64,000 nucleotides of DNA, taken from sequence record NC_048170.1; one strand, written 5' to 3'. The notes under the pieces were generated by a model that saw only the letters and a program-made list of their open reading frames with translations, searched no databases and had not been told where the DNA came from. The first letter of the stretch is position 1; each line of letters opens with the position of its first letter. Positions 7,847-26,114 of the stretch are shown here, piece after piece. Origin of the DNA: Escherichia phage vB_EcoM_Goslar. The position numbers and the translations under genes were made by a program.

Positions 7847-8201
7847 CGTGGTGTTCAGCATGAGTCGCTACCTCATACCCGCAGCTTTACCTGCAGCTTC
7901 CGGTGTTACCGGAATGTCCAGAATACATCTTATCCATATTCCAAATGGAACGTAGGACTTCCGCGCTGGATCTCGCTTGAGACCACGTATTCGTTGAACG
8001 TTCTCCTGAACGGAGCTTCGCTGCTGATCGAACATTGTCGCGTACGGTAGGCGTCCCCGAAGGGATTGTCATTGAAGCCGCGTACATCCGCTACCTTGTT
8101 TCTACCTTATCGGTTCCTCTTACGAGGCGTAGCGGCCTTAGCCCTTCCCAGCAATTCACGGAATCCAAGCTCTTCCTTTCGGAAGGCAGGGCCTATGATT
8201 A
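7847..8201 (-). mobile_element. group I intron 2 (ORF-less, about 355 nt) in the nvRNAP beta' gene
   Basis: Minus-strand core elements: P AAUUGCUGGGAA (plus 8144..8157), Q AUCAGCAGCG (8019..8028), R GUUCAACGAAUACG (7986..7999), S AAGAUGUAUUCUGG (7918..7931). R and S carry compensatory changes keeping the P7 pairing GAAUAC/GUAUUC. Boundaries obey exon-ends-in-U and intron-ends-in-G. Confidence 0.5.
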
Positions 8202-8214
8202 AGCGTCACCGTCG
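8202..8214 (-). CDS. proposed 13-nt micro-exon (C GAC GGU GAC GCU) supplying the DGD of the beta' NADFDGD motif
   Basis: Joining exon 1 (...AAU GCC GAC UU) + micro-exon + exon 3 (AUG AAC AAC CAU...) gives in-frame ...GYNADFDGDAMNNHIVPDIW..., matching E. coli NADFDGDQMAVHVPL in length. Both flanks obey the U/G splice rules. Hypothesis only. Confidence 0.35.
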
Positions 8215-9654
8215 CTTACGTGCACCGACGTTTATTAACTCATGGTTATCCACTGAAATACGGCGTTAGGGAAATAATCCTTCTTGCCGCGTTTTGAGAT
8301 TTGCAATGCCATATTACTCGGAGACAATCTGTAATGCCATGCTGCTTCATCGATAGAACTAAACTTCTTTGTTTCACCGTTATCAAAGATGATTTTCAAC
8401 GCCAGTTTAGGTAAATCGTCTTCCGTTTCTACTAATTCGAAAGAATCGATATTCTCTGCCAGCGTCAACGGATCAACTGGTAATATCAGCCAACCAGCAC
8501 GCTGCAATCCTCCACGTAGACTAATTTGTTTATTCAACGCAGGGGTAGCCATGCCAACTAACTTAGCAGCCAGCTTGCGGTCTTTAATATAAAGACGATA
8601 ATCTCCGGTATTATTAATAGCATACACACCAAAGTTATTGAACGATACCTTTCCAGCATCGGAACTAGTAAAGCCTACAAAGTCGTGGCTGTCGGTAGCC
8701 ACGTCGTATTTAAATGCTAATGGCTTGTTTCGACTGCCGCTAAGATACTTCTTGGCTGTAGATACCGATATGTTGAGATATCGTCCAATAGCATTCAAAC
8801 TTTCTAGTTCGATGATTTCTCCTGTCAATATGTCCTTTAACCGAACATTACCCATCGGTATTGGTGGTTTACCGACATAACCCAATTCACGATATGCGTG
8901 TTTCAAGTTATCTGAATCAGTAGCCCATTCCAAATTTTCTAGTCTGTTATCCCAACGCACCCCATTAAGATGATTAGGGACACGACGGATTATACCTGAC
9001 GTCGGATCTGGGTTAAATGTTTCAAGGACAATCTGATGATGGTATTTCACTTTATTGTTCCTAGTGAAAGCGCGATAGTTGTTTTTGCCCGACTTGGGTG
9101 GTTCAGTACGAAACAACACTGTCAGACTAGACACATCTACTATCGTACCGTTCTTATTAACAACGATACCATCAAAACCATTAACAGGACGATAATCAGA
9201 CAAACAATCTTCAGAAATTGCCTGTCCAACTAAAGGTTCACTCAATTTGACCTCCTTTATAAAAGAAGTCGGTGCACGTAATTATCGACTATATCTTCAT
9301 CCTCGTTGCGAGGAGTCTCCCGTTTTGGTCTGTGTTTAACAGAGCCTACTCTACTCGACATCGCGTCTTTCGATAGTCTGTGAGCACACATCTTAACGAA
9401 CATTCGTGGATTCCTAAACAGGTGAACGTTCTTGTTGAGATGCTTCGCTGCGGATTATTCCCGTCCTACCTCTTTTACCCTACCCAGTTCATTACGCTGG
9501 CCCTCATCTGTGTCACCACGATGAGTTGGTGTGTAGTCCGATTACAGAAACTTCCCGTCAATTAGAGAGTTTTAACTACGTTCCTGTTACCAGAAACCCG
9601 ACTCCGACGATATCAATAAATCAACGTAAGTTATTGATTTAATTGAAGAAACTG
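8215..9654 (-). mobile_element. group I intron 1 (about 1440 nt) in the nvRNAP beta' gene, carrying an HNH homing endonuclease ORF
   Basis: Minus-strand elements: IGS GAGUCGG (plus 9598..9604) pairs with exon end CCGACUU (U-G wobble at the splice site); P AAUUGACGGGAA (9552..9563); Q AAUCCGCAGC (9447..9456); R GUGCUCACAGACUAUCG (9371..9387); S AAGAUAUAGUCG (9286..9297). The HNH ORF sits in the loop of a perfect 10-bp stem (9268..9277 / 8220..8229); the intron ends GUAAG at 8215. Confidence 0.6.
8235..9245 (-). CDS. HNH homing endonuclease (intron-encoded)
   Basis: 336-aa ORF with HNH motif RRVPNHLNGVRWDNRLENLEWATDSDN and a helix-turn-helix-like DNA-binding segment (SLNAIGRYLNISVSTAKKYL). TTG start 4-5 nt after AAGGAGGU. 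Confidence 0.8.
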   Translation of the reverse strand: MSEPLVGQAISEDCLSDYRPVNGFDGIVVNKNGTIVDVSSLTVLFRTEPPKSGKNNYRAFTRNNKVKYHHQIVLETFNPDPTSGIIRRVPNHLNGVRWDNRLENLEWATDSDNLKHAYRELGYVGKPPIPMGNVRLKDILTGEIIELESLNAIGRYLNISVSTAKKYLSGSRNKPLAFKYDVATDSHDFVGFTSSDAGKVSFNNFGVYAINNTGDYRLYIKDRKLAAKLVGMATPALNKQISLRGGLQRAGWLILPVDPLTLAENIDSFELVETEDDLPKLALKIIFDNGETKKFSSIDEAAWHYRLSPSNMALQISKRGKKDYFPNAVFQWITMS

Positions 9655-10910
9655 AAGTCGGCATTATAACCTTTGAGGATCATCACGCTTAACCCGATGG
9701 TGTTATCCTGCGGATCGCGTTTAACCTTGGTGATTTCAAGACATTGGTTACTGCTTCGGTCAAGTGATGGGTTTCGAACAAAGCCACACACAATCCCATC
9801 GAACGGTGTATCAGCAATAAGCTCATCGTGCAGCTCGCTCATCATCGGATGATAATTACGGACATGTTCCGCAACGAACGCACGTGCTGCTCTCGGTGAA
9901 TAACCACGATGGAATAACTTGGATTGGATATGTTCTTTATTGGTTAAAGTAAATGGTGCGTATGGGAAATGCAGATGATAATAACGATGGTTCGCTGTTA
10001 TCGAACTGATTACAGTACGCGTGGTGAATGGATGTAATGTACCTAATATGTTTTTACGTGTAATACCTTTCTTCTTACCGATGAACTCATCGAAAATCGC
10101 CGCGTGGTATTGCAGCAGCTTCAATTGCACTTTCGCCATCCAGTTTTCTTTCTTTCTGGCGCTCAAAGGTGTTGTTGGATGATAGATACTATTCAACGTA
10201 CCGATAGCATCGATCGCACCTTCCATTTTGCTATCTGCATAACGACCGGTCGGCGTATTTTCGATAACGAACATCATGGCCGCAGGAAAGCTGATATACT
10301 GACTGAAGAACTTATCACGATGGATTCGGATGAATTCTCGTAGCGTGTCAACTTTCTCCGTGTTCTTCGGTCCACGTAACGTAGGTCCTTTATACAAGAT
10401 CTCCATGATGCGATCGAAGTTCTGTATAAAGCTATTTACGCCACGACGTATCCCGAATACATCGAATTGCTGCTCCAGATAGTTCTTGAGTTCGATGGGT
10501 CGTTTTACATTTGGACGGTAACTGGCATCAATGAGCCACGTCATCGTTTCAAAGCTTTTGATATTCAACTCGCTTGCCAGCACGAGATGGACCAACGGGT
10601 TAATGAACGCATCGATTCCTTCAGGAACACGCGCCCAAACCGTCGAACGAATCTCTTGTTCTGCTGGGTAGGTTACAACCGTTTTACAGTTTGGACACAC
10701 CGTGCCGAGTAGCTCACCACGATTGTAGAAACCACAACCACATTGTGGTGTGATATCCAACGTATCGCTGGAATAAACACGGGTGATAAAACTGTTTAAT
10801 TTCTTCTTCTCTTCGACGACTTTTGTATCGTAATCGTTCAACAAAATCGGCGTAAAAGGAAGTTCTGCGAGCTGTCTATCGAAACTCACGATATCGAGCA
10901 TGATGGCCAT
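9655..10910 (-). CDS. non-virion-type RNAP beta' N-terminal subunit, exon 1 (phiKZ gp55-like by position)
   Basis: Zn-binding CGCGFYNRGELLGTVCPNCK, beta' motif FIGKKKGITRKNILGTLHPFTTRTVISSI (cf. [23 protein letters not shown]), and the genomic ORF stops inside the catalytic motif (...ILKGYNADF-SFFN*). AGGAGA RBS before ATG at 10910. ORF track reports 9639..10910. Confidence 0.8.
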
Positions 10911-11002: not shown

Positions 11003-12898
11003 TTAGAACAGGTTGAATGCCCCACCCATGTTGTTAACGCCAACATTCGGACGATCGCTACGTGCGTAGATGTTACCGGAGATGTTACCCAGACCACGAG
11101 CACGTGCTGCCATGTTACCACGAACAGCGGTACCTGCCAGATGCTGGATGTTCTCAGGACGGATGGTGAAGCCAGCATCAGCAGCGGCTTCGATCAGCGC
11201 CTGCAGTGCTAACGGATCGAAGTCGTAACGCATTGCCCAGCCGGTTTGTTCCCAGCTACCAGACAGAACACGATCGATGATTTCGTGACGAGCGACAACA
11301 CGCTGAGACATCGTCATATCGGTACGGTCGAAGCTGTCTTCCCAAGCTTCTACGGTATCCGGGTTAGTGATGTTCATCATGTACAGATCGTCCATATCAC
11401 GAATATCGTGACGGTGACCATCCTGGTGGTTGTAGTGACCCAGCGGGATACGGTTACCGGTAGCGTAGACCAGCGGTAAGCCGTATTGATATTTCTTGCT
11501 GAAGCAACCCAGGGTAACATCATCGAACGCACGGTAAAGCGCTTTGTAACCTTCGGAGATTTCACGGACTTCACCTTCAACTTTGCCCGTATAGATCTTC
11601 TCAGCCGCCGGGATCATACGCAGCAGCCAGCTGTACTCACCTTCTTCCGGTACGTCGATAGAAATCAGCAGAGACGGATACAGTACCTGTTGCAGGAACT
11701 TGTAAATCTGCTCGTTGGTTTGAGTGGACAGATCCAGCGGTGCGGTAACTTCCGGATCCAGTACCATCGCCAGAGCACCCGGGTTATGCGGACCAATACC
11801 ACGGGCAGCGTTGCTGATTAAAGACTGTGCCCACGCCATACCGCTGTTCAGCGTAGCGATGGTGCCAATCAGCCCCAACACGAAAGTGTTCGGCGTGAAC
11901 GCATCCAGCTCCAGCGGGTAAGCGCTGGTCATCACGTAACGCGGCTGGTATTGTACAGTCGGCGGTACCGGATAACCGTTAACCAGAACAGGGCCTTGGT
12001 TGAAGGTCGGGTTCTGCGGGCTGTAGGTCAGGTCGATGTAACCGGTGGTGGCGACCAGACGCTGTTGACTATCGTAATCGCTCATCGCTTGACGGATACG
12101 GTTAGAGATAGTTACAGTGATGTCAGAACGCACAGGGTTACCAACAATATCGCTGTCCTGCATACCGCTGGTGTTATACTGAACGCTGCTGATTGGCTGA
12201 TCGCTTGCCATCATGCCCAGGTTGAACTGCGGCAGACCCAGTTTATCACCGAGACGGATTTCGATCGCGGTTTGGATTGCGTTATCTGCAGCAGACAGCA
12301 GGGTGGTTGCCAGATGCGCAGATTCAGCGGTGATTTCATTGGTCACCACAGCCAGACCAGCGATACGAGCAGTACCATTAGACTTACCGCCAATAGCTGC
12401 ATACATTGCCGCCATGACTTCGTTGATGAACGTACCGTTCAGGTTATCAACCCAGGTACGCGGTACCAGAATGTTACCATGCGGACCTTGTTCTTCACGA
12501 CGCGGCAGCGGAGCCAAACCGGCAACCAGCGGAAGCACATAACCAAAGAAGTGGTTATGGTCACCAACTTTTGCACCACTCATAACGACCAGGGTCGGAT
12601 ACGGTACGCTGTACTGGTTCGGGTCAACCGCAACAAAGATGAAGTCGTCTTTGAACCGGGTATCTTCCAGATATTTCTCCATCAGACGACGGAGATTCAG
12701 TACCTGCTCGGAGCCAGTATTACGGCTAATACGACGGCTCAGTGTACGGTTGATCGTACGCATCGTATGAGTTACTTTAGGCTGGCCAGCAAAATCTGCA
12801 GCGGTTTCCAGCGCCTCATCAGCACGTTGTGCGGTGCGGGTTTCAGCTGCACGAATTTCTACATTATCGTTACCGTTATTACGTACGTCTAAGCCCAT
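11003..12898 (-). CDS. probable phage-nucleus shell protein (chimallin/ChmA-like); highly expressed structural-type gene
   Basis: 631-aa ORF immediately upstream of, and co-oriented with, the nvRNAP beta' gene, as phiKZ gp54 is to gp55; strong terminator after it. Identity is inferred from size and synteny, not from motifs. Confidence 0.45.
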   Translation of the reverse strand: MGLDVRNNGNDNVEIRAAETRTAQRADEALETAADFAGQPKVTHTMRTINRTLSRRISRNTGSEQVLNLRRLMEKYLEDTRFKDDFIFVAVDPNQYSVPYPTLVVMSGAKVGDHNHFFGYVLPLVAGLAPLPRREEQGPHGNILVPRTWVDNLNGTFINEVMAAMYAAIGGKSNGTARIAGLAVVTNEITAESAHLATTLLSAADNAIQTAIEIRLGDKLGLPQFNLGMMASDQPISSVQYNTSGMQDSDIVGNPVRSDITVTISNRIRQAMSDYDSQQRLVATTGYIDLTYSPQNPTFNQGPVLVNGYPVPPTVQYQPRYVMTSAYPLELDAFTPNTFVLGLIGTIATLNSGMAWAQSLISNAARGIGPHNPGALAMVLDPEVTAPLDLSTQTNEQIYKFLQQVLYPSLLISIDVPEEGEYSWLLRMIPAAEKIYTGKVEGEVREISEGYKALYRAFDDVTLGCFSKKYQYGLPLVYATGNRIPLGHYNHQDGHRHDIRDMDDLYMMNITNPDTVEAWEDSFDRTDMTMSQRVVARHEIIDRVLSGSWEQTGWAMRYDFDPLALQALIEAAADAGFTIRPENIQHLAGTAVRGNMAARARGLGNISGNIYARSDRPNVGVNNMGGAFNLF

Positions 12899-13152
12899 TT
12901 GGGATTCCTCTTTTCTTAAACTTTATTAAATGACGTCATTGAATCAGCTTCTACTCGCTCATTCACCTAGGTAATATAACCCTGAAATTTTTTTCAATAT
13001 TGGTGTAACCACATTGAACGATATAAACCCCTAGGCGAACGCTGCCGAGAAGCAACATTCTTTCTACATATAATCAGGATATGTCTGTAAACTTTTACTT
13101 CTCTTATTGAGAGTAATGTCATATCCGTTTACTACCTTCTTACGGAGTTCGT

Positions 13153-14247
13153 ATGTTTCGTGTTTTAAATAACCTCCCGCGAACATCATCGGGTGTGCAA
13201 CCCGTCCCTCAGAAAGACTATCTAATACGCGAAGTTCAAAGAAACCTACAGACAATCCAGAACCACTATCAAGGTTTTACCTTCGCGGTTCAGAGCGATC
13301 ACATCCTTGCGTTGCTGCTCGCACAGCTCCCTATGAGATACGACATCTCAGTACAAACTTACTACGACATGATTCTCGATCTTACCCCAGAATTGGGTAA
13401 TCGTGTCAAGTTGACAACATCAAGATACGCGGGTAAGTTATTCGACGGTGCTTTCTATCCGGGACTGCACGAAGCTATTATCGCAACCGGTGAAAGTCGT
13501 CTTATTTCACGTGATGTTCTTGACAACTGGCGTAATTGGTCACCAGTTAGAATCGTGACGCACCCATACGCAAATCTTCGTTACATTCCTCTTCACCAAA
13601 AGCAGGTTGAAGAAGGACGAGGTTTTGCGGTCATTATGGTTGATGTGCCTTTGTTAGCGCTACAGTATCGAATGTGGTCTTTGGTCATGGGTCATAACGT
13701 CGACGGTAAATGGGTGGTTAAAGAACCGGTTACAAGCTTCCTTGCGAGTTTTCCGTTGGTTAACGCATTATACTCACACAACGATGTTGTTATACGCAAT
13801 CGTTGTTTGTGGGTATCACCGGCTAAGAATCCACTCAAATCACCAATTTACGTTAACGACCTTGATAACGTATTCAGCCAAGTCGTTCTGTCCGTACAGC
13901 ATCATTTATTACGAAGAAGACGAAGCTACACCGATATGCTTAAACAGATACCGAGTTTATACGGGGATCAGTACCAAGCAACCCGAATGGGTTACACCGT
14001 CGATCTTCGACAAACACGATGGGCAAGGGATCTGGGTTGTCTGTCATTATGGCAACAACTCGTCACATTGCAAAACGTATCTGAAAGCGTCGGGTTCAGC
14101 AGTCAAATCGATAACGACCTGTACCGTGCTGCTGACCGTAGTCTAAAAGAAGGTAACTGGGAGTCCTCTCCGTTACCTGGCGATTTAAGACGTGAAGTTA
14201 TCGCACAGGTTGCCGACCTCTTAAAAATTCTTCCCGCCGGTGCATAA
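13153..14247 (+). CDS. hypothetical protein
   Basis: 364-aa plus-strand ORF, divergent from the 631-aa gene and convergent with the 717-aa gene. Confidence 0.6.
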   Translation: MFRVLNNLPRTSSGVQPVPQKDYLIREVQRNLQTIQNHYQGFTFAVQSDHILALLLAQLPMRYDISVQTYYDMILDLTPELGNRVKLTTSRYAGKLFDGAFYPGLHEAIIATGESRLISRDVLDNWRNWSPVRIVTHPYANLRYIPLHQKQVEEGRGFAVIMVDVPLLALQYRMWSLVMGHNVDGKWVVKEPVTSFLASFPLVNALYSHNDVVIRNRCLWVSPAKNPLKSPIYVNDLDNVFSQVVLSVQHHLLRRRRSYTDMLKQIPSLYGDQYQATRMGYTVDLRQTRWARDLGCLSLWQQLVTLQNVSESVGFSSQIDNDLYRAADRSLKEGNWESSPLPGDLRREVIAQVADLLKILPAGA

Positions 14248-14257
14248 TCACCCCCCT

Positions 14258-14297
14258 CTTCCCTTGCATCCTCCCAACCCGTAAGGGAAGGGAGGAT
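14258..14297. terminator. bidirectional GC-rich hairpin between convergent genes
   Basis: atcctccc...gggaggat and cttccctt...aagggaag pairings within the 66-bp gap between the plus gene ending 14247 and the minus gene ending 14314. Confidence 0.45.
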
Positions 14298-14313
14298 GGG
14301 GTGGTGGGTTATG

Positions 14314-16467
14314 TTATTCTGCGGTTTCTTGCTTCGGTAAATAACTTGCTGCAATGTCTTGGGCTAACAATGTATTGTTTTTATTCGAGATGAAAATACC
14401 GTAACTTTCCATTAACGCGTAATACGAACGAACGAGCGTAGAGATCAATCGACGAATATCCATACCTTGAATAAAGATATCAGGAAGCCCGGAGGCTTCG
14501 ATCACCGGTAATGGTATCGTTAAGTTGCTTATCGTTTTCTTATCGTTACGTACAATCCAATCACGGAAACGTTGTTGTAACCCTTTATCCTCCCAGGAAT
14601 CAATCCAATCGTTAAGAAGCGTTTTGTTCTTCGTCGCCAACGGCACACGAACCCCAACATAGGGCGGTTCCTGGCAATGGCCGTACGATTGAGCAAACAC
14701 CTCTTCCCACATATCGTAAGACTGTTTCGTTACCGCAACATGTGGCTTCACTTTAACACGTGTTAAGAAATCGGGATCACCTCGTTTCATGGACTCAACG
14801 ATTTCGTTTTCTAACGAGATAATATCATCAAGAACCAATCGAATGCTGATCTTCTCGTTACGTAACAGCTTATCCATGATACCACACATCATGCGTTCAA
14901 CACGTTTGACGATCATTTTTGGTGCTGACGCGTCACGCATAACCGGACCTTTCAATTCCAGCTTCGGTGGGTTGATAGGAACCCCCTCACGCATGGTCAT
15001 GTAACCGTAATAGTTTTTACCCATCGAGGTTAACGACAGAATCAAGAACATATATTCGTTCTTCATTTCCATCACGTACATATGCTCTTTCGCTACACCG
15101 ATATTACCAGAACACATCGCCATCAGATGAACCGTAATCTGCGTAACCAGATAGATAAGCGTATTTGCTAAGCGCGTCGAAACTGGATTGATCTCCATAT
15201 TTCCAAATCGCCACTGCACCCACTCCTGGCAGGTAAACACCGTCGAGTCGGTATCAGACAACACACCCACTTCACGGATTGCTGATGGGAAAGCATAAAC
15301 GCCAGCCGGTTGGTTCTCGGTACGCCAGAATGCCATAATCAAATCTGCGTAGCTTTGAATACGCTGTAGCATTAATTTTGTCGTCGCCGCAGTAAGACGA
15401 TAACCAAGTTCATTTCCTTTTTCTAGCGCTACGTAAATCGCTTCCCCGTTCAAGAACTCCGTGCATTGTGCTGTAATCCAAGCGACCGTGTTGTTATCCA
15501 TGGAAGCAATAATGGCTTTAGCCTCTTCCATCGTTTCAACAGGTTCGGATGCCAGCTCACATAACGAGTCAAGAAAATCTCGAACAAATTCAGGATTAAG
15601 CTCACGTAACGAGTACAGGTTATTGCTGTACATGTAGCAGGCACGTTCCAACGGTGTTAAACCGGTAATTAACTCCCGGATAGTCAGTTCTTTCTCTGGG
15701 TCGAAAGTATATCGATGCAAGCATTTCGATACGTTAGCCCAAACCTCTTCCGGCGTAGGGTAATGTAGTTTGTATTTTACCATTACCTGCTCAATGGCTT
15801 TGCGATCGCTGTTACGAACAATACTTACGATGTTTTCAATTGCGATATCACAATCGTAATAATGGAAATTGCCCGCAAGGAAGCGTTCGTTGTTCGCATT
15901 GGCTGAACCTGAAGCACAGCGACATGTTGTCGTTAAACTTGGATGCGCGATCGGATTATAAAAAGGGTTAAACTTGGACGCCTGGGTTCCTGACAAACTG
16001 TTGTTGTCTAACTTGGTGTTGGTTTGTCGTTTATCGTGTAACTCAGCTTCGTCTTTACGTCCGTGTGCTTGCGCTATCGACATTTGTTTCTTTTGTTTCT
16101 TACGCAACTTACCGTTTTCAACCGCGAAGTCGCTTAGCACACTGGAACGTGTTTCACGTGGATAACAGTTAGCCCATACCGGCGTGATAATTAAATTATT
16201 TTCTTTAATATCATTGAAGTATTGGCTGAACTTGATGACTTCTTTTTCACGATTTCCTTCGGTACGCTGTGTTAATACAAGACAGTCGGGATCAACCATC
16301 CCGTATTTTCCACCGGGACGAACCGTATCAAGGACAAACTGCAACGCTTCCTGCTGTGATATCCCACGCATGCGCATTAAGAACAGGGTATAATCCTGTA
16401 CCGCTTCTTTGGTCATATCCAACGTACGACCATATCCGTTTTCATCGTAAAAGAACGGATTTTCCAT
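14314..16467 (-). CDS. hypothetical protein with weak polymerase/nucleotidyltransferase-like motifs
   Basis: 717-aa ORF with GGAGGA RBS. Contains KLDNNSLSG (KxxxNSx[Y/S]G-like), MYSNNLYSL and VLSDTDS (cf. pol B YGDTDS), but the motif order is not canonical. Confidence 0.6.
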   Translation of the reverse strand: MENPFFYDENGYGRTLDMTKEAVQDYTLFLMRMRGISQQEALQFVLDTVRPGGKYGMVDPDCLVLTQRTEGNREKEVIKFSQYFNDIKENNLIITPVWANCYPRETRSSVLSDFAVENGKLRKKQKKQMSIAQAHGRKDEAELHDKRQTNTKLDNNSLSGTQASKFNPFYNPIAHPSLTTTCRCASGSANANNERFLAGNFHYYDCDIAIENIVSIVRNSDRKAIEQVMVKYKLHYPTPEEVWANVSKCLHRYTFDPEKELTIRELITGLTPLERACYMYSNNLYSLRELNPEFVRDFLDSLCELASEPVETMEEAKAIIASMDNNTVAWITAQCTEFLNGEAIYVALEKGNELGYRLTAATTKLMLQRIQSYADLIMAFWRTENQPAGVYAFPSAIREVGVLSDTDSTVFTCQEWVQWRFGNMEINPVSTRLANTLIYLVTQITVHLMAMCSGNIGVAKEHMYVMEMKNEYMFLILSLTSMGKNYYGYMTMREGVPINPPKLELKGPVMRDASAPKMIVKRVERMMCGIMDKLLRNEKISIRLVLDDIISLENEIVESMKRGDPDFLTRVKVKPHVAVTKQSYDMWEEVFAQSYGHCQEPPYVGVRVPLATKNKTLLNDWIDSWEDKGLQQRFRDWIVRNDKKTISNLTIPLPVIEASGLPDIFIQGMDIRRLISTLVRSYYALMESYGIFISNKNNTLLAQDIAASYLPKQETAE

Positions 16468-16765
16468 AAATCCTCCAAAAGTTATTTAGTCTGTCTACAT
16501 CATCTCGTATATCTGTTAAAAAAGAAGGACGGCATAAAAAAGAACCGATCCAGCCGAAGCCAGATCGGTTAAAAAGGATAATAACTGACAGAAAGATATC
16601 GATGATGTTCGTGAAACAAGATCTTCTCTCGTGTACAATGATGCTAGATCAGAGGGAGGTTGTAACACGAGAGGTGGTTCGCCAAAGAAGGAATAAAAAC
16701 ACGAACCTATCTTATTTCACTGATGGCACTAACCACTCAAAATATATAGTACTGTATGTAAAAGT

Positions 16766-17179
16766 TTACTGATTAATCAAGTCGTTAGCAACAATCTTGG
16801 TGTAACCTGCCTGATTAAGAATCTGATTAATTTTCGTTACGTCGGTCGCATCCTCAATAACGATGCTGGGTTTATAGATCAGCGTCTTGGTAACGACGAT
16901 TGTACTCTCCTTAATCCAAGGAATCCCTAGAATCACATACTCGCCATCGGCTGTAATGACCTCGACGTAATTGTATTTCGTCGGATCGTTCGGTACACTA
17001 GACGGGAGCCGGGAATAAATCTGTTGGTGAATGGCGTCTACATCACGGCCGTTGCGCACAGCCGTACGATAGTTGTACACGGCGCTAATTTCTACTCCGT
17101 TGAAGTTAACCCCAAGTTCTGGGGCGTATACATCAAAACTCACAACAGAGCCAATCTTTTCTAAATCAGAAGCTGGCAT
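16766..17179 (-). CDS. hypothetical protein
   Basis: 137-aa ORF. Confidence 0.55.
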   Translation of the reverse strand: MPASDLEKIGSVVSFDVYAPELGVNFNGVEISAVYNYRTAVRNGRDVDAIHQQIYSRLPSSVPNDPTKYNYVEVITADGEYVILGIPWIKESTIVVTKTLIYKPSIVIEDATDVTKINQILNQAGYTKIVANDLINQ

Positions 17180-17190
17180 AATAGCATCCT

Positions 17191-17712
17191 TTATTTAAAA
17201 ATGTATTCGTATCCGAAGGTCGTCGCCGACCAGACCCGGATAGATGATAGTGTTCCGCCACGATAAAACGTTTTTGTGAATTCCATATCCTGGGCAACAC
17301 GATAATAAACACGTCCGATAATACGCACGATAAGGTTTCGTGATAACGATCTCTCCTCGCAGTATTCATCGATAAAGTCATCGTCGATATCCGATAAGAC
17401 AACATCCGCAATTTCTTGCAGTAGGTTCCTCATCAGCATCTGCCTTCCTTCGGTACCCCACCCAGACAAACAGTAATCGTCTTCTGCCTGACTATAGATG
17501 TCGTTAACCGCCTGTTCGAGCAGTTGCTCAAGATAGTAGTCATCGCGTTTTATAACGTGGCGACGGCGCTCAGTGGCGTATTTTTCCATCCTGTGTTTCT
17601 CTTGTTCGGCGTATGTATTAACGACGCCACAGTCTTTTCTGGATCGTCCCACAATGCACGACGAAAACTGGATACTACCATAACGGTAGGATAGATTTGT
17701 ACAACCTCCCAT
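17191..17712 (-). CDS. hypothetical protein (true start probably internal, near 17589)
   Basis: 173-aa ORF; its N-terminal 40 codons overlap the upstream gene and look non-protein-like; MEKYATERRRHV is a plausible start. Confidence 0.4.
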   Translation of the reverse strand: MGGCTNLSYRYGSIQFSSCIVGRSRKDCGVVNTYAEQEKHRMEKYATERRRHVIKRDDYYLEQLLEQAVNDIYSQAEDDYCLSGWGTEGRQMLMRNLLQEIADVVLSDIDDDFIDEYCEERSLSRNLIVRIIGRVYYRVAQDMEFTKTFYRGGTLSSIRVWSATTFGYEYIFK

Positions 17713-18038
17713 CCGTAACGATGTGCGTTAGTCGTACGTCCGACATTGAACAGACATAGCTGATTTAAGAAACAGAGCTGCATCTTCGTAAACAACACCA
17801 TGTCTTCACGTTTAACGTATCCGAGGATATACGCATTCTCGAACGCCTCGCGTGACAAGACGGGACGATTAAGATACCGCAACGACAGTACCAACAACGT
17901 TGTTATGCGCAACGGATCTTCTGGGTCATTCATGGTGCTCAGCTCTGCTTGTAACCAGTCAGGGATAGTAACCGTCAGACGATAGGTATCTGTTCCACGA
18001 TCAACCACATTCAATGTTGAAAAAGGCAACATATCCAT
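17550..18038 (-). CDS. hypothetical protein
   Basis: 162-aa ORF; C-terminal overlap with the next ORF. Confidence 0.45.
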   Translation of the reverse strand: MDMLPFSTLNVVDRGTDTYRLTVTIPDWLQAELSTMNDPEDPLRITTLLVLSLRYLNRPVLSREAFENAYILGYVKREDMVLFTKMQLCFLNQLCLFNVGRTTNAHRYGWEVVQIYPTVMVVSSFRRALWDDPEKTVASLIHTPNKRNTGWKNTPLSAVATL

Positions 18039-18495
18039 GAATTCCTTCTAGCTCGAGGTTGTTCTCGCCGGTCTTCGGTAATAACCCACTGGCCGTTAAC
18101 ATCTGCGTCATCGAGTAGTCAAAGCACGGAAATATCAGGTTAACGGTTTCCTGGATCGCGTCAACATAACTATAAATGGCTTCATAATACTCACCGTCAT
18201 GATCTACGCTAACCAGTTCCTGACACAGTTCTTCGCTTATCATTTCATATACCGGTGGATACCACGATTGAAATGGTCGCTGCATACGTAACGACCAATA
18301 CTCGTACGTCGTATACTGAAGCACGTCATAAGCCGATACGTTAATGCGGTCGAAGAAAGCATACTTGTCCATATGCTGATACAACATCGCCAGCACGGTT
18401 TCCAAGCACACCGATATCCGCACGCCGTCATCTTTCCCGTTAAGAAAATTAGGTTTCTGCCGATAACGCACAAATGCCGACGGCTTTGATTGCAT
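18001..18495 (-). CDS. hypothetical protein (start trimmed to ATG overlapping upstream stop)
   Basis: ORF track 18001..18576; the internal ATG at 18495 (MQSKPSAF...) overlaps the stop codon of the upstream gene. Confidence 0.5.
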   Translation of the reverse strand: MQSKPSAFVRYRQKPNFLNGKDDGVRISVCLETVLAMLYQHMDKYAFFDRINVSAYDVLQYTTYEYWSLRMQRPFQSWYPPVYEMISEELCQELVSVDHDGEYYEAIYSYVDAIQETVNLIFPCFDYSMTQMLTASGLLPKTGENNLELEGIHGYVAFFNIECG

Positions 18496-19046
18496 TATTC
18501 CACCACCAACCATAACGTCATACTCGTATCTAACGTAAAATTGAAATGCCACCAATCTTCTACACGTGGAATCCACGTACGAAGGATTTGGTTAACTTCG
18601 CTTCGCATCACCGATAAACGACAACGAAAATCGAACTTCTCATCATGACCGTAGTCTTCATGCATGAAAACTTCATCCAAAACGAACTCAAGTTGCATGT
18701 CGACATCACGGCCAGAGATATTCCGTTTGTACAAATACAACTCAATCGTGTCGTAAAGCAACGTATGAATATCATAATTTCCGTTCGGTGAGAAATAAGG
18801 TAATCGCTCATCGAGCATCGAAAACAGATATTCACTGTAGTTTAATAACGGGATGATGTACCGACGCCCTGTCTGTGGTGTGCGAATATGTATCGAAACC
18901 TGACTTGGGCGCGGAATAACCGACGGCTTAGAATCGTCTCTCTGAAATTGCTCTAAAGATCGCAACAAAGGTGGCCGCATTGTAACTCTCCAACGCCCAA
19001 TTGTAAGGCCCTTCCAACATGTGTTCCCATACGTGAATAAACTCAC
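18495..19046 (-). CDS. hypothetical protein (start uncertain)
   Basis: 183-aa ORF; N-terminus overlaps the upstream ORF by 118 nt, so the real start is probably internal (e.g. MRPPLL at 18980). Confidence 0.45.
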   Translation of the reverse strand: MSLFTYGNTCWKGLTIGRWRVTMRPPLLRSLEQFQRDDSKPSVIPRPSQVSIHIRTPQTGRRYIIPLLNYSEYLFSMLDERLPYFSPNGNYDIHTLLYDTIELYLYKRNISGRDVDMQLEFVLDEVFMHEDYGHDEKFDFRCRLSVMRSEVNQILRTWIPRVEDWWHFNFTLDTSMTLWLVVE

Positions 19047-19557
19047 TACCGAAGACAGGCTCTAGTGCCATAGTGAGATTCGTAAGTTCTGACGCGGCCG
19101 CATGGTAAGCATCAACATGTCTTTCCATTGACGGATCGTCTTCATTGAAAATACGTTCTGTATCGCCAGCGCGCTCAATAAGTTCGGTAATGAGATCTGT
19201 CCATGTCTCGTGACACGTCATCATTTCCTGTTCTCGACTTAGTATGCCGATGTCTGCGTGGACGCTGGACTCGAACCGGTCTAAAAGGACCCGAAGAACG
19301 TGCACCTTGTCGATGTATTTCACCGTTATCCAGGAAAGCGGTTGCCACCGACTCAGCATCCATCCGGTACTCGGGAACCCCAAACTCATATAGTACGGGT
19401 TGCACCGGACCGAAGACGGAGCGACGTTGTTTAAATCGCTCCTTAAGGGCAAGGCCTTGTTTAATATAAACGGGTTCATTGGCGAGCTGTTCCGCTTTTC
19501 GTTTTGCGTGAGCCAATCGAAGTTCTTCCAATTGCCCAAGCCATTCAAATTGTTCAT
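18928..19557 (-). CDS. hypothetical protein, 3' part of a possible frameshifted gene
   Basis: Protein-like from about WITVKYIDKVHVLRVLLDRF (near 19332) onward; the N-terminal 76 codons look like out-of-frame translation. Confidence 0.45.
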   Translation of the reverse strand: MNNLNGLGNWKNFDWLTQNEKRNSSPMNPFILNKALPLRSDLNNVAPSSVRCNPYYMSLGFPSTGWMLSRWQPLSWITVKYIDKVHVLRVLLDRFESSVHADIGILSREQEMMTCHETWTDLITELIERAGDTERIFNEDDPSMERHVDAYHAAASELTNLTMALEPVFGSEFIHVWEHMLEGPYNWALESYNAATFVAIFRAISERRF

Positions 19558-20152
19558 CTGTTAGCTCCTGGGGACGTTCAACAATCGCGCCAGATGGGCA
19601 GACATTGATCGTGATGTTAATTGACGGCATCGCCATCACTCGAGGATTACTATTACGTACGCGGACAACGTGTTCGGTTGCTGATTTACGATCGACGCAA
19701 TACTCTGTTTCTTGGAACTCAAATGCTTTTAACGGTGTTGGTTTTGTTTGACGTTTAGGAACGCGGCCAAGATCGACAATATAGGCATAATCGCACACAC
19801 GTTCTATTCCGTAAATACGGTTATCCGACCAGTTCTTACCAAACAGCTTGTTGTGATGATAAGACAAATATTCGGTTACCATACCCTGGACAACATCGAA
19901 GTCTTCTCGAAATTCAGGTTGGTACCAAATCGGGCCGAGAATATCTGCGAACGATTCATGACGATATCGAGGATCATGTCGAGTCCAGGTCATTCTCTGA
20001 TTAAGATCGAAATCCACCAACAACTCGGTTAATTGCAATTTTTCCTTCGGAGAAAGCTGGCGTTGATGATGCAAACTCAGGCAATCGATAAGCGGTAATG
20101 AAACCCACGATGCTAATGTGTACAAATCGATCCTGGCTAATCTCTTGGTCAT
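19175..20152 (-). CDS. hypothetical protein, 5' part of a possible frameshifted gene
   Basis: 325-aa ORF; protein-like to about ...VATAFLDNGE, then an Arg-rich tail (RPVRVQRPRRHRHTKSR) typical of out-of-frame reading. Confidence 0.5.
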   Translation of the reverse strand: MTKRLARIDLYTLASWVSLPLIDCLSLHHQRQLSPKEKLQLTELLVDFDLNQRMTWTRHDPRYRHESFADILGPIWYQPEFREDFDVVQGMVTEYLSYHHNKLFGKNWSDNRIYGIERVCDYAYIVDLGRVPKRQTKPTPLKAFEFQETEYCVDRKSATEHVVRVRNSNPRVMAMPSINITINVCPSGAIVERPQELTDEQFEWLGQLEELRLAHAKRKAEQLANEPVYIKQGLALKERFKQRRSVFGPVQPVLYEFGVPEYRMDAESVATAFLDNGEIHRQGARSSGPFRPVRVQRPRRHRHTKSRTGNDDVSRDMDRSHYRTY

Positions 20153-20243
20153 ACTCTTTTCCTAAGTCCCCATTGTTTATACACACGATATCTGGGAATA
20201 GTTAAAATATACGGCGTAAAACGAAGCAGGAGAGTTTCTGACG

Positions 20244-20564
20244 TCATTTTCTCCCTCTTCGAATACCACCGATACCTCTTTCGTCTAAGACGTCCCAAGC
20301 ACGCTTTATTTCATCCTCCGTTGCTCTGGTATCTGGAGGGACAACCATAACACAGTCGTGGAATGGCCAATGTGTAGGTCTGGGGTTAGCGAACAAATCA
20401 TCCCATTCAAATGTCCATTCTTTCTTTGAGCGATTGTAGTAGAGCGTAAGGTACGTGTTGGTATACGCCGGATAACCACGCATAACTTCAATATCCTTAC
20501 GATCTTGCCGTTCCTGATTCCAATCGTTAAACCGCTTTCTTATTTTCTCCCACCACTTTCCCAT
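20244..20564 (-). CDS. hypothetical protein
   Basis: 106-aa ORF. Confidence 0.55.
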   Translation of the reverse strand: MGKWWEKIRKRFNDWNQERQDRKDIEVMRGYPAYTNTYLTLYYNRSKKEWTFEWDDLFANPRPTHWPFHDCVMVVPPDTRATEDEIKRAWDVLDERGIGGIRRGRK

Positions 20565-20617
20565 GCTTTCTCCTACACGGCATAAAAGCCTGCCCCGAAG
20601 GACAGGCTCGATAGAAC

Positions 20618-20818
20618 TTAATAACCATCCAATTTCAATGAAGGATGGTTGACGATATGTGCGTGTTTTGCTGGGTCATATAGCTGATATGGAAAATAGC
20701 CATGCCATTGACGGCCTTGGCATTTCGTACACAGGAACTGACCAACACCTTGTCGATTCTCGTAAGCGAGTTCGGTACTATCAACATGTCCGCAACGTTC
20801 GCAGATAAACAGCGACAT
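20618..20818 (-). CDS. small zinc-ribbon protein
   Basis: 66-aa ORF with CERCGH...CTKCQG (two CxxC pairs). Confidence 0.5.
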   Translation of the reverse strand: MSLFICERCGHVDSTELAYENRQGVGQFLCTKCQGRQWHGYFPYQLYDPAKHAHIVNHPSLKLDGY

Positions 20819-20855
20819 AGCGCATCCCCATTCACTTGAACCTTTTGGTTCGGCA

Positions 20856-21836
20856 TTAGAAAAGCAAGAAACCGCTATTCTTCGCTTCCGCTACAGTTTC
20901 GTCACCAACTTTCGGTGCTTGTTGACGTGCGTTACGATGTTCGATGTAACGTTTCGCTTCGTCAGCGATTTGTTTGATAATACCCCCTAAACGATCGGTA
21001 CTTAAAACAAACGACGTCGCTTCACGAATCGGGCTGCTTTCAGGCACAAAACCATCACAGCTATAAATAGCGCTAACACCCATGACTTTTGTCGCGTCTT
21101 TCGGATAAAGCGTACAGAAAGCAATCGGGCTATCGTTCTCTTTCGTCCATTCGTATCCCATGAACGTATTCAGTTCGGTGATCGTCGGTTCCAAACCGGT
21201 AACACGTGGATGGTTTAAGAAGTTTTCCAGGTCGGCGCTGTCAAGACGACGGTTCTCGCCAGAAAACAGAACACAAAGCTGGCTAATAACAACCTGCACG
21301 TCCAGGTTGACATCCTGCTCCGATTTCCCATTTTCGCCATTCATGTGATAGCTAACAATCACTGGACGTTTCAACCCTTCTGCAGCCGCCATCAGTCCTT
21401 TGAAGGTGCGATCGGCGTTGATCGTCTGGCGCTCATCATCGAACGAGGCAACGATACAACACACCACACGTTCACCGCGTTCCAGCAGGTTAGCAACCAA
21501 CGCAGGACCGGCAACAGAACCTGAACCACCGCTCAAACTAAAGACCACGATATTAAATTTACCTGGCGTATGCTTATTGAGAATACCTGGGATTTGTGAA
21601 CAGATCAGTTCAGCGTTCTCATCACGCTTCTTACCAGAACCGTCTAACTCACGACCAGCTGCATCTTTAAAGATGTAAATATGATCGTCGCCCAGTGTGC
21701 TATCGCGTAGGTTAGCGCGGCTGGTATCAACATACGTCATGCTGTGTAATCCTTTCGCGACTTCGCCTTCAAATGCTGAGCCGATTTCGCCACCACAACC
21801 ACCGACAGCCCAAATATGTACTTGGTTCTCTTGCAT
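20856..21836 (-). CDS. phuZ: PhuZ-like phage tubulin (FtsZ/tubulin superfamily)
   Basis: 326-aa ORF with nucleotide-binding loop VGGCGGEIGSAF and tubulin signature FSLSGGSGSVAG (GGGTGSG-type), plus a C-terminal tail; size matches PhuZ (about 315 aa). Confidence 0.7.
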   Translation of the reverse strand: MQENQVHIWAVGGCGGEIGSAFEGEVAKGLHSMTYVDTSRANLRDSTLGDDHIYIFKDAAGRELDGSGKKRDENAELICSQIPGILNKHTPGKFNIVVFSLSGGSGSVAGPALVANLLERGERVVCCIVASFDDERQTINADRTFKGLMAAAEGLKRPVIVSYHMNGENGKSEQDVNLDVQVVISQLCVLFSGENRRLDSADLENFLNHPRVTGLEPTITELNTFMGYEWTKENDSPIAFCTLYPKDATKVMGVSAIYSCDGFVPESSPIREATSFVLSTDRLGGIIKQIADEAKRYIEHRNARQQAPKVGDETVAEAKNSGFLLF

Positions 21837-21900: not shown

Positions 21901-22743
21901 ATGGGTGCTATTGACTACAGTGTAGATCGTATCTGTCGTACAATACCGGCAGACATCCTACAGTATTGCTATATCGATCGCTACGACTGGCGTAATCGCT
22001 ATCCTCGTTCCGTAGAAGACATCATTACCGATTGGGTAATCCGTAAACGGGTTATCGGCGACATCGATATCTACGGGGGACTACAAACCGTTATTCCCCT
22101 TGATGATGCCGGTGTCACTATCGAAGAAGTCACCATCAACTGTTATGTTTTCCACATTCCGTTGGAAGCCACGCAGGGACGTTATATCACGTCTGCATTA
22201 TCCATTATCTCAGGGAGCGTGAACAACTACGGAATAAACTATAACGGGCAATGGGGCGCTTTCAACCAAACCCAATTTCAACGTCAGCTTTGTGGGTGGA
22301 ACCCCGCAAGCAACACGTTACAGCAAGGGATGAACGCGTTCGGTCCCATGAACGTTCTTAGTACAGCCAACGTTGATATCATCGCACCTAACACCATCAT
22401 GGTGAACAACGTCACGCCGGTACAATTTCCCCTGAGCCTACGCTGTTTCCTTGCCCACGATCCGGAACTTACCAACCTCAGCATGGAGGTTTGGAACGAC
22501 TTCTACAAACTCTGTTTATACGCCACACAAAGTGACATCTACAACAGAACCGTTATCCGTCTCGATAGAGGTGTTACAGCACAAGGACAAGAAGTCGGTG
22601 CATTCAAGGAATACATCGATCGCTTTGCCGATGCTGAAAACACATATCAGGAATTCCTGAACGAAACGTGGGCTGGCGTTGCTGCCTGGAACGATCCACA
22701 AACTAAACGTCGCGCCATTCGACTACAAACCGGTTACTTCTGA
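21901..22743 (+). CDS. hypothetical protein
   Basis: 280-aa plus-strand ORF. Confidence 0.6.
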   Translation: MGAIDYSVDRICRTIPADILQYCYIDRYDWRNRYPRSVEDIITDWVIRKRVIGDIDIYGGLQTVIPLDDAGVTIEEVTINCYVFHIPLEATQGRYITSALSIISGSVNNYGINYNGQWGAFNQTQFQRQLCGWNPASNTLQQGMNAFGPMNVLSTANVDIIAPNTIMVNNVTPVQFPLSLRCFLAHDPELTNLSMEVWNDFYKLCLYATQSDIYNRTVIRLDRGVTAQGQEVGAFKEYIDRFADAENTYQEFLNETWAGVAAWNDPQTKRRAIRLQTGYF

Positions 22744-23270
22744 TTAACGACAGCTTCCTCCCTCGGCGTTTTCGAGGGAGGTATTTGCCGTTTGAACACT
22801 TTCAGCATGTTCGCAAAATCAGCAGCAATAATACAGGCCGAGCTTGATAGCTTATTGCTGAAAATGAGATCGTCCGGTAAACAATCGAACTGAATACCGT
22901 ATTGCGTCTTTGTCTCATCAACGATCAATGATGGTGTCGATCTTGTCTTCGCGATGTCGGTGATATACAAACGTAAAAATAATTCACCGTCTTCGCTATC
23001 CATAAAACGATAAGCGTTACCAGAAAACGCAGCATGCGGCGTAACGATAAATTGAACACGATCGTCGGTCGGATGGATATTTAACCAACGTTCGATATCA
23101 TTACTACTCACATTTCGCATATTTACTACGGTAAAAGCAAATAGCGTATCGTGATGTTTGGAATAATGCAGCACATACGCCGCATCTTTCTTTCCGTGAA
23201 TCCCTTCAATGTATTCTATTGTCGTATAGCCGGATTTATATAGCTTTACTTGCGGTTTATCACTCATCAT
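22734..23270 (-). CDS. hypothetical protein (start trimmed to ATGATGA overlap)
   Basis: ORF track 22734..23351; tandem ATGs at 23270/23267 overlap the TGA stop of the upstream gene (minus strand reads ATGATGA). Confidence 0.55.
   Translation of the reverse strand: MMSDKPQVKLYKSGYTTIEYIEGIHGKKDAAYVLHYSKHHDTLFAFTVVNMRNVSSNDIERWLNIHPTDDRVQFIVTPHAAFSGNAYRFMDSEDGELFLRLYITDIAKTRSTPSLIVDETKTQYGIQFDCLPDDLIFSNKLSSSACIIAADFANMLKVFKRQIPPSKTPREEAVVNQK
22757..22781. terminator. GC-rich hairpin at convergent gene ends
   Basis: cctccctcg-gcgtttt-cgagggagg; overlaps the last codons of the minus gene and follows the plus gene ending at 22743. Confidence 0.4.
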
Positions 23271-23566
23271 AACAACCCTTCCCGTTTCATCGCGGCACGC
23301 ATACTTGCGTAAAGCGCATTCTTCATTGCACCCGGACGCAACGGATAACAAATCTCATATCGACGTCCTTGTTTTACAGCAATTTTCCTTCCGTTCAGAA
23401 ACAACGTGCCGTTATCCAGCAACAACTCACCTTGTAGTACCATGAGTCCTGCTTTAACATGACGTCCTTCTTCTTTAGTTAAGACCTTATAGCCGTGTTT
23501 ATCCAATAACCACAATTCGTAGATACCGTGCGCAGCCTTCGGCATTACTTTCTTCTTCGTCGTCAT
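23267..23566 (-). CDS. hypothetical protein
   Basis: 99-aa ORF. Confidence 0.55.
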   Translation of the reverse strand: MTTKKKVMPKAAHGIYELWLLDKHGYKVLTKEEGRHVKAGLMVLQGELLLDNGTLFLNGRKIAVKQGRRYEICYPLRPGAMKNALYASMRAAMKREGLL

Positions 23567-23578
23567 GGAAGATCCTCC

Positions 23579-23953
23579 TTAAACTCCTTGTCGGATCATC
23601 ACCAACCGGAGCATGTTGTATTCCAATGTAGCGCTTTCTAATTCGAATTCATATCGATACCAGAAATTCGGCTCTAATTGACCTACAACACATTTACGAA
23701 CATCTGTCTGCACCTTCCTCGACAACACCTGTAACAGTTGTGTTATCTCCGGCTTGAAGTAATACGCCAAACCTAACTGATCAGAATAAAACAGGCCACA
23801 ATCAAAGATGGCCTGTAAAATAACATATTCAACCATCAGGTGACGCGCATCGGGGTCAGGGAATGGCGAACGTAAAGCGAGGTCTAACACATCGACAATT
23901 GGGCCGACATAAATGGCGGCACGGTACTCACGAATAACACTGATGTTATCCAT
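23579..23953 (-). CDS. hypothetical protein
   Basis: 124-aa ORF. Confidence 0.55.
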   Translation of the reverse strand: MDNISVIREYRAAIYVGPIVDVLDLALRSPFPDPDARHLMVEYVILQAIFDCGLFYSDQLGLAYYFKPEITQLLQVLSRKVQTDVRKCVVGQLEPNFWYRYEFELESATLEYNMLRLVMIRQGV

Positions 23954-23966
23954 GATAACCTATTCG

Positions 23967-24791
23967 TTAACTGTCGCTTTCTGATGTATCGACGTAGTTG
24001 AAAATACGATCCCGTAAACACTCGTAACGAGGCAACGCACTAAGAATGATCATCTTCAGCTGCATCGCGATCGATACACGTTCTTCATCCGACGCATCGT
24101 CTCCCCATTTACCCGGCTTAACCTGAATGGGTTCGTGCGGATCCTGCGGGAATATAAAACTTAACAACAGATAATCCGTACGGAACTCCCATACTTCTCG
24201 ACCGTCGTTATCGGTTTCTTTACGCAACGTGAAGAGTTGGCGTTCGGTGGTTGGATCCAGCATCAGCGGTCGGCCACGAACAATCTCCAGTTTACGTGGG
24301 CTGACGAACGTCGTACGTTCAGGAAGGTATTTTTCAACATCATCCGTATCCAACAAGAACAAAATGATATCGTCGAAATACTTCGGTGCGTACGTGTGTA
24401 TCGGTTCGCCGTCGCTATACGAAGAGATCTCTTGAAGTATTGGTGTCTTACACGAAAAGTTCTGGCACGAACCACGGGTTATCGGTAAGGTGGTCCATTG
24501 ATGTTCTGTAGACAATTCAACAGGCACCAACGGATAATCATCGATGAAGACCACGCACGTTGTACTAATGGGTATTCTTCCATCATTACCTGGTTCAAAA
24601 ACCAAACGTATCTTACCGGTAATCAGCGCCATCTCATCTGGCATTAAATGGCTTGCTGAACGAGCAAGTCTGAAACCGCTCGCCTGTTTATAAGGTTCGG
24701 GTTTATAGCCACGGACAATAAGAGAGACATCCGCAAGTTCAACGCTCACGAATACATCTTTGGTGTCTTCATTGTTCGTCGTTAACGTCAT
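23967..24791 (-). CDS. hypothetical protein
   Basis: 274-aa ORF. Confidence 0.6.
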   Translation of the reverse strand: MTLTTNNEDTKDVFVSVELADVSLIVRGYKPEPYKQASGFRLARSASHLMPDEMALITGKIRLVFEPGNDGRIPISTTCVVFIDDYPLVPVELSTEHQWTTLPITRGSCQNFSCKTPILQEISSYSDGEPIHTYAPKYFDDIILFLLDTDDVEKYLPERTTFVSPRKLEIVRGRPLMLDPTTERQLFTLRKETDNDGREVWEFRTDYLLLSFIFPQDPHEPIQVKPGKWGDDASDEERVSIAMQLKMIILSALPRYECLRDRIFNYVDTSESDS

Positions 24792-26085: not shown

Positions 26086-26114
26086 CGTAGTAGTATCTGT
26101 TTATCTCTTTTATG

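Follow-up and report, generated by a model that had tools for sequence, protein, structure and literature searches.

The nucleus-forming jumbo phage Goslar (Escherichia phage vB_EcoM_Goslar) and two of its proteins, chimallin (ChmA) and the tubulin PhuZ, are already known in detail from atomic structures and cell biology. Goslar chimallin was reported by Laughlin et al. (PMC9365700) as gp189, a protein of 631 residues (YP_009820873.1) with the models 7SQT, 7SQU and 7SQV, and was superposed on the chimallin of phage 201phi2-1 with a root-mean-square deviation of 1.8 Å. Birkholz et al. (PMC9891218) named gp189 as chimallin and gp201 as PhuZ and showed that a GFP-ChmA shell surrounded the phage DNA, that PhuZ formed a vortex around the shell and drove the rotation of the nucleus, and that the dominant-negative hydrolysis mutant PhuZ(D202A) abolished the vortex and slowed the rotation. 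The subunits of the Goslar virion RNA polymerase (vRNAP) were listed in a 2026 preprint as gp78, gp196, gp205, gp207 and gp210. Introns with endonuclease genes were predicted in 2002 at gp56, gp72 and gp179 of the related phage phiKZ (Mesyanzhinov, according to PMC10914365). In phage PhiPA3, gp65-66 of the non-virion RNA polymerase (nvRNAP) has a self-splicing intron. The HNH intron gp210 of the same phage, in the homologue of phiKZ gp178, confers an advantage in competition and nicks the allele of phiKZ (PMC11620839). Here, a 64-kilobase (64-kb) stretch of phage DNA, referred to as the window, was analyzed with respect to its chimallin, PhuZ and RNA polymerase genes.

The window almost certainly represents Goslar, a chimallivirus, with genes for chimallin, PhuZ, the N-terminal piece of the nvRNAP beta' subunit (beta'-N) and two vRNAP subunits, and with the beta'-N genes of both polymerases split by introns.

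Chimallin and PhuZ genes

The initial annotation of the window had proposed a phiKZ-like phage that builds a proteinaceous nucleus, from a chimallin-like gene of 631 codons next to the nvRNAP beta' gene, a tubulin gene of 326 codons and two multisubunit RNA polymerase gene sets. The 631-codon open reading frame (ORF) was present where it had been placed (11003..12898, minus strand), and its product was chimallin. A sequence search of the PDB showed that 631 of 631 residues were identical to the entries 7SQT, 7SQU and 7SQV ('Chimallin'), followed by more distant matches to PhiPA3 PhuN (1.5e-20) and 201phi2-1 chimallin (1e-9). Residues 22-595 matched the Pfam family PF25677 (Chimallin_Phikzvirus, 'Phikzvirus chimallin family') with 88.2 bits (cut-off 27), PHROG 4795 'nuclear shell protein' matched at 4e-52, and the identity to phiKZ gp54 was 25% (E 8e-18). 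By its full-length identity to the three solved models, the protein has the chimallin fold as well as the N-terminal and C-terminal segments by which protomers are linked into a lattice. The chimallins of Goslar-like relatives from metagenomes, at 95-98% DNA identity, differed from that of the window at 9-24 residues, and the exact match therefore discriminated Goslar from these relatives. Alternatively, the 631-residue protein could be a virion structural protein of the capsid or sheath type in a neighborhood that merely resembles that of phiKZ, since its identity to the chimallins of the phiKZ group was low (21-25%) and the adjacent opposite-strand gene matched a 'virion structural protein' PHROG. 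The identity to the solved lattice protein of Goslar, the PF25677 score well above the cut-off and the location of the tail sheath in a different gene (37222..39294) made a capsid or sheath fold exceedingly improbable.

The tubulin ORF was also found where the initial annotation had it (20856..21836, minus strand), about 8 kb from the chimallin gene (12898 to 20856) on the same strand. Residues 2-326 of its product were identical (325/325) to the PDB entries 9PM9 and 9PMK, a solved structure of the tubulin/FtsZ family deposited as 'Tubulin/FtsZ GTPase domain-containing protein', which confirmed the tubulin fold; phiKZ TubZ (3ZBP, 5e-29) and 201phi2-1 PhuZ (3R4V, 4e-15) were matched in the same search. 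PHROG 4733 'tubulin PhuZ' was matched over the full length (1.9e-68). The sequence contained GGCGGEIG at residues 12-19 (T1) and, as the initial annotation had noticed, LSGGSGSVAG at residues 101-110, in which SGGSGS is the T4 signature, of the GGGTGSG type. Residue 202 was an aspartate, the site of the published D202A mutation. Both chimallin (...GGAFNLF, 11003..11020) and PhuZ (...NSGFLLF, 20856..20873) ended in a short hydrophobic C-terminal motif; the similarity may be due to chance or may reflect a docking motif common to both.

Chimallin and PhuZ were identified from sequence identity to solved structures, and shell formation, vortex and rotation are taken from published experiments on the Goslar proteins, which for the shell comprised GFP-ChmA imaging and cryo-electron tomography (PMC9365700, PMC9891218). 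In the published mechanism, chimallin self-assembles by means of its tails at the N and C termini into a closed square lattice separating the replicating phage DNA from the cytoplasm, and GTP-dependent dynamic filaments of PhuZ form a vortex that pushes tangentially on the DNA compartment and rotates it. The nvRNAP, whose N-terminal beta' piece is encoded just downstream of chimallin, works inside the nucleus, and the vRNAP, with two subunits encoded at 47-55 kb, is the packaged enzyme. Some jumbo phages with two RNA polymerases build no nucleus (10.1101/2023.02.24.529968), and tubulin homologues also act in the partition of plasmids and prophages, so that a jumbo phage of the AR9/PBS1 type, with multisubunit polymerases, no nucleus and a TubZ-like DNA-segregation protein, was considered as well. 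Hardly any weight can be given to such a phage, because the chimallin of the window was identical to the protein that forms the shell in infected E. coli, and its PhuZ was identical to the protein that, in published imaging, forms the vortex and slows the rotation when it carries D202A. The nucleus-building phage of the initial annotation agreed with the GFP-ChmA shell and the PhuZ vortex published for Goslar (PMC9891218).

Interrupted RNA polymerase genes

Directly downstream of the chimallin gene and on the same strand was an ORF of 423 codons (9639..10910, minus strand), which matched profile positions 1-419 of 478 in PHROG 2987 'RNA polymerase beta subunit' (2e-117) and whose homologue in phage RAY is annotated as 'nvRNAP beta' subunit 1'. 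The adjacency of chimallin and nvRNAP beta' in the initial annotation, as in phiKZ gp54-gp55, was therefore correct, but the 423-residue ORF that it took for the beta' gene is exon 1 only, read through into an intron: the product ended in ...GYNADFSFFN*, stopping within the universal NADFDGD motif. A beta' N-terminal piece with the catalytic (NA)DFDGD loop was obtained in the window only after conceptual splicing, both for the nvRNAP (...GYNADFDGDAMNNH) and for the vRNAP (...GLGGDFDGDTVS).

In the nvRNAP gene, exon 1 was predicted to end at 9655 (...AATGCCGACTT) and to be followed by intron 1, a micro-exon of 13 nucleotides (nt), intron 2 and exon 3, which started at 7846 with ATGAACAAC. The conceptual spliced product had 497 residues (...NADFDGDAMNNHIVPD...), of which residues 6-476 aligned in one piece to the intron-less homologues in Eowyn, RAY and numerous further phages. 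The predicted junction peptides of the spliced products were ...GYNADFDGDAMNNHIVPDIWTAK in the nvRNAP and ...LAGLGGDFDGDTVSVNVLYSMEAIDEITNSHK. The junction between exon 2 and exon 3 was placed at GCN|ATG because three Goslar-like loci (L006, L011 and L012) were uninterrupted there and read GAC GCN ATG AAC AAC. The junctions ...DGDARLMLNTTMNNH and ...DGDALNTTMNNH, which also obeyed the U(-1)/G(omega) rule, were rejected, as the intron-less alleles encoded DGDAMNNH and the homologues had no extra residues. A scan of genome contigs with a 27-nt word from exon 3 gave no match.

Intron 1 matched the Rfam family RF00028 over the full length of the model at 9269..9645 (46.9 bits, E 3e-10), whereas the match of intron 2 at 7959..8163 was partial and weak (16.7 bits). 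Both scores came from a local E-value scan and lay below the gathering score of 50, and a Rfam scan at the gathering threshold missed both introns. In P1 of intron 1, the exon end CCGACUU paired with GAGUCGG, with U.G at the splice site, and in P10 the first bases of exon 2, CGACG, paired with an adjacent CGUCG. The HNH ORF of this intron matched Pfam HNH_3 and NUMOD1, and the loop containing it was closed by ACGUGCACCGAC/GUCGGUGCACGU, just 5' of the 3' splice site.

The second polymerase was represented at 47-55 kb by ORFs of 516 residues (53756..55306, minus strand) and 1448 residues (47224..51570, minus strand). The former was the homologue of phiKZ gp180 (PHROG 2986, 3e-161) and the latter that of gp178; the phiKZ annotation lists both gp180 and gp178 as head (virion) proteins. 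Exon 1 of the gp180 homologue ended with GGC GGT GAT at 53798 and exon 2 started with TTC GAC GGT GAT at 51753, so that GGDFDGD was restored by joining them. The intron between them matched RF00028 at 51817..52245 with 67.7 bits, above the gathering score of 50, and its HNH ORF of 490 residues followed the 5' splice site and preceded the guide sequence. Residues 4-557 of the spliced product aligned in one piece to intron-less homologues, and the match to phiKZ gp180 stopped at residue 503, exactly at the junction. Locus L014 (about 5490-5520) carried an intron-less allele reading GLGGDFDGDT, and locus L015 (about 5505-6020) carried the intron with no ORF. The two multisubunit polymerase gene sets of the initial annotation were both represented in the window, but only by one nvRNAP and two vRNAP subunit genes instead of complete sets of four or five; PHROG scans of the other ORFs of the window found no further RNA polymerase subunits, and the remaining subunit genes are located elsewhere in the Goslar genome.

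Intron alleles in Goslar-like genomes

Ten further Goslar-like loci were collected from IMG/VR and metagenome scans; nine of them were parsed and, together with the window, gave ten genomes. Four insertion sites were found in a 31-nt span of the codons for NADFDGD in nvRNAP beta': a (GGN T|AT), b (GCT|GAC), c (GAY TT|C) and d (GCN|ATG). The window had introns at c, with an HNH gene (1440 nt), and at d (355 nt), and L003 (6252-6976) at b and d. In L004 (6244-7365), L008, L009, L010 and L013, introns were present at a, at c (376-380 nt, no HNH gene) and at d, forming three tandem introns separated by two 13-nt exons. L006 (3429-3778) and L011 had an intron at b only, and L012 had one at a only, with a different inserted ORF (1381 nt). 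The genomes thus contained one to three introns in five configurations; each site was empty in some genome, and 0/10 were intron-free. The 13-nt micro-exon of the window was also present in the five genomes with three introns, and the sequence was uninterrupted in L006, L011 and L012. Site c was occupied by the ORF-less intron (376 nt) in L004 and related loci and was empty in L003, L006, L011 and L012.

All 22 intron copies ended in G, and 21 of the 22 followed U, the exception being the site-d copy of L003, which followed C. At 6619/6620 of L003, the 5' splice site of this intron had a C-G pair in place of the U.G that is nearly universal; either the ribozyme is unusual or impaired, or the boundary is shifted. 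At site c, the guide was GGAUCUG instead of GAGUCGG in the genomes with the exon sequence CAGAUUU instead of CCGACUU, a compensatory change in P1. The introns at sites b and d, 18 nt apart, shared about 71% identity from end to end (7847..8201 of the window compared with 6252-6601 of L003, 3429-3778 of L006 and 4312-4661 of L011), and both followed an ACGCT-like exon end. They are paralogues, and the comparison suggests transposition of a single lineage to another target of similar sequence.

An alignment of ten site-b and site-d introns gave a consensus fold with compensatory changes in 35 of 93 pairs. After manual addition of the P3/P7 pseudoknot, 99.3% of the cells were paired and 36 pairs, including P7, were changed on both sides, with U.G at the splice site. 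In the controls, slid alignments showed 34-44% pairing and 1-4 compensatory pairs, and 0/500 shuffles reached the observed values. Because this covariation was far above the controls, intron 2, weak as its Rfam score was, is taken to be a genuine group I RNA with a defined structure. The hallmarks of group I introns, namely the U paired to G in P1, the terminal G and the P3-P9 core with covarying P3/P7, were all found.

In the window, both beta'-N genes would need group I splicing to restore the catalytic DFDGD loops. Several points weigh against Goslar with two intron-split beta'-N genes as the overall reading. The match of the tubulin to the Pfam domain PF00091 was under the curated cut-off (29.9 vs 33 bits, E 8e-7), the entry 9PM9 was deposited under a generic name, and a literature search found no paper tying it to Goslar. 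The phage collection gave no megablast match to 11003-21836, and tblastn with chimallin against the same collection gave a best identity of 23%; there being no Goslar match at the nucleotide level in that collection, the assignment is based on the papers and on the identity of the proteins to PDB sequences, and identity to the orthologues of Pseudomonas phages is low, only about 20-27%. Splicing in Goslar is a prediction, and in a phiKZ transcriptome obtained with long reads, splicing was not detected at gp56, gp72 or gp179 (PMC10914365). That transcriptome, and the database annotation of phiKZ gp55, gp56 and gp56.1 as separate genes, would fit beta' genes that remain unspliced, split by free-standing HNH genes into pieces that are separate polypeptides or inactive remnants. 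However, the 13-nt exon is untranslatable alone, and an unspliced enzyme would be without the Mg-binding DFDGD loop. Each interruption followed U (in one case C) and ended in G, and the 36 compensatory pairs, including the P3/P7 pseudoknot, favor a folded ribozyme. Splicing is supported because of the full-length RF00028 matches, the covariation, including that of P1 with the exon, the protein alignments running in one piece over the junctions, and the intron-less natural alleles, which were exactly colinear with the predicted ligated exons. Unspliced beta' genes are accordingly very unlikely, and splicing of both genes is the preferred reading.

The 31 nt around the NADFDGD codons of nvRNAP beta' seem rather likely to be a hotspot of mobile group I introns in Goslar-like phages, with occupied and empty alleles at four sites, a fifth site in phiKZ, up to three tandem introns with two 13-nt micro-exons, two introns occurring with and without an HNH gene, and one lineage copied 18 nt away. 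By analogy with PhiPA3 gp210, for which this was shown, such polymorphism points to homing that is still under way and to interference through introns among nucleus-forming phages that infect the same cell. In the searchable literature (papers on Goslar and on the chimallivirus core genome), the coverage of which was incomplete, no account was found of the introns of Goslar, of the micro-exons or of the polymorphism at several sites; introns of this kind are already known, and the Goslar hotspot may not be new. If undescribed, it would provide a natural series of intron-plus and intron-minus, endonuclease-plus and endonuclease-minus alleles in a genetically tractable E. coli phage, which could serve for tests of homing and of phage-phage interference inside a protein-bounded nucleus, and of how ribozymes handle 13-nt exons.

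Gene neighborhood and comparison with known systems

The order on the minus strand was DNA polymerase, an opposite-strand gene, chimallin, the nvRNAP beta' N-terminal subunit and an HNH gene (Table 1). Reverse-strand genes also flank chimallin in phiKZ, RAY and Eowyn. The genes around 47-55 kb matched the gp175-gp181 block of phiKZ, and those around the vRNAP genes encoded a head maturation protease, virion structural proteins and a protein of 2260 residues with a tail-associated endolysin domain. For annotation, which is the practical value of these results, the genes at 11-22 kb can be read against phiKZ gp50-gp56, and the truncated RNA polymerase ORFs should be joined across the introns.

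Table 1. Positions of the genes, exons and introns discussed in the text, in coordinates of the window
Feature	Coordinates	Strand	Evidence
Chimallin (ChmA, Goslar gp189), major nuclear-shell protein, 631 residues	11003..12898	-	PDB identity, PF25677, PHROG 4795
PhuZ tubulin (Goslar gp201), 326 residues	20856..21836	-	Identity to 9PM9/9PMK, PHROG 4733, motifs
nvRNAP beta'-N (phiKZ gp55 homologue), predicted exon 1, ends ...GYNADF	9655..10910	-	PHROG 2987; alignment of spliced product
Group I intron 1, site c, 1440 nt, with HNH homing-endonuclease ORF 8235..9245 in a terminal loop	8215..9654	-	Rfam RF00028
Predicted 13-nt micro-exon (exon 2) CGACGGTGACGCT, completes the F codon and encodes DGDA (catalytic Asp residues)	8202..8214	-	Sequence reading
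Group I intron 2, site d, 355 nt, no ORF	7847..8201	-	Covariation, intron-less alleles
nvRNAP beta'-N, predicted exon 3, MNNHIVPD... to stop codon	7622..7846	-	Alignments; DGDAMNNH unbroken in L006, L011, L012
vRNAP beta'-N (phiKZ gp180 homologue), predicted exon 1, ends ...GLGGD	53798..55306	-	PHROG 2986, 3e-161
Group I intron, 2044 nt, splits GGD|FDGD, with HNH ORF 52238..53710 (490 residues)	51754..53797	-	RF00028; HNH PHROGs
vRNAP beta'-N, predicted exon 2, FDGDTVSVNV... to stop codon	51574..51753	-	Alignment, intron-less allele
vRNAP beta subunit (phiKZ gp178 homologue), 1448 residues, uninterrupted	47224..51570	-	PHROG 3148, 1389 bits; 32% identity to gp178, full length
Divergent family-B DNA polymerase (position of phiKZ gp50)	14314..16467	-	PF20286, 681 bits; PHROG 2927
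Conserved opposite-strand gene between DNA polymerase and chimallin (position of phiKZ gp52)	13153..14247	+	PHROG 3938 (4e-53), PHROG 14481 'virion structural protein'

Small ORFs that overlap in part occurred in runs on the minus strand between DNA polymerase and PhuZ (16766..20564) and beyond PhuZ (22734..27600). In PHROG scans, the small overlapping ORFs at 16.7-20.2 kb, as well as several others, matched either no family or only families without a known function, and the gene calls in both runs are uncertain because most of their ORFs had no PHROG family. The ORF of the terminase large subunit (29538..31769, minus strand, 743 residues) matched terminase PHROGs over the first ~210 residues only, and the remainder was divergent or of another domain type.

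Compared with Goslar gp189 (YP_009820873.1) and gp201, the chimallin and PhuZ of the window were identical over 631/631 and 325/325 residues and equal in published length, with no detectable difference. Phages phiKZ (gp54), 201phi2-1 (gp105) and PhiPA3 (gp53) shared with the window the Pfam family of chimallin and its position just upstream of nvRNAP beta'-N, but the identity was only about 19-25%, and the CTS2 segment of Goslar chimallin is shorter and makes different contacts (PMC9365700). Similarly, PhuZ resembled the PhuZ/TubZ proteins of 201phi2-1 (gp59; 3R4V) and phiKZ (gp39; 3ZBP) in its tubulin/FtsZ GTPase family, the glycine-rich T1 and T4 loops and the catalytic Asp, whereas the identity was about 27% and Goslar PhuZ forms a vortex and no bipolar spindle (PMC9891218). 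The location of chimallin directly upstream of nvRNAP beta'-N was also seen in phiKZ gp54-gp55, in RAY gp222-gp223, which are annotated as such, and in Eowyn, and the phiKZ block gp50, gp52, gp54, gp55 and gp56 (gp50-gp56.1) had an order like that of the window.

The layout of the vRNAP beta'-N region was that of phiKZ gp180-gp179-gap-gp178. Introns of phiKZ and PhiPA3 likewise interrupt the gp55 and gp180 homologues, each with an HNH ORF and in active-site codons. In phiKZ gp55-gp56-gp56.1 (L016, 7924-10762), the intron was located at AAT|GCT, the fifth site in the motif. There, gp55 ended in ...KAPN plus intron-derived residues, followed by the HNH gene gp56, the ribozyme core and exon 2, ADFDGDQLNLTLMPD. 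The 3' terminal hairpin of the phiKZ intron resembled the hairpins of the Goslar-like introns. In the gp178 homologue of Goslar, the conserved Asp-Asp (residues 1066-1067), which is the site of the PhiPA3 gp210 intron, was uninterrupted, which would make Goslar an intron-minus target there. Unlike phiKZ gp56, gp72 and gp179 and PhiPA3 gp210 and gp65-66, the gp55 homologue of Goslar had two introns around a 13-nt exon.

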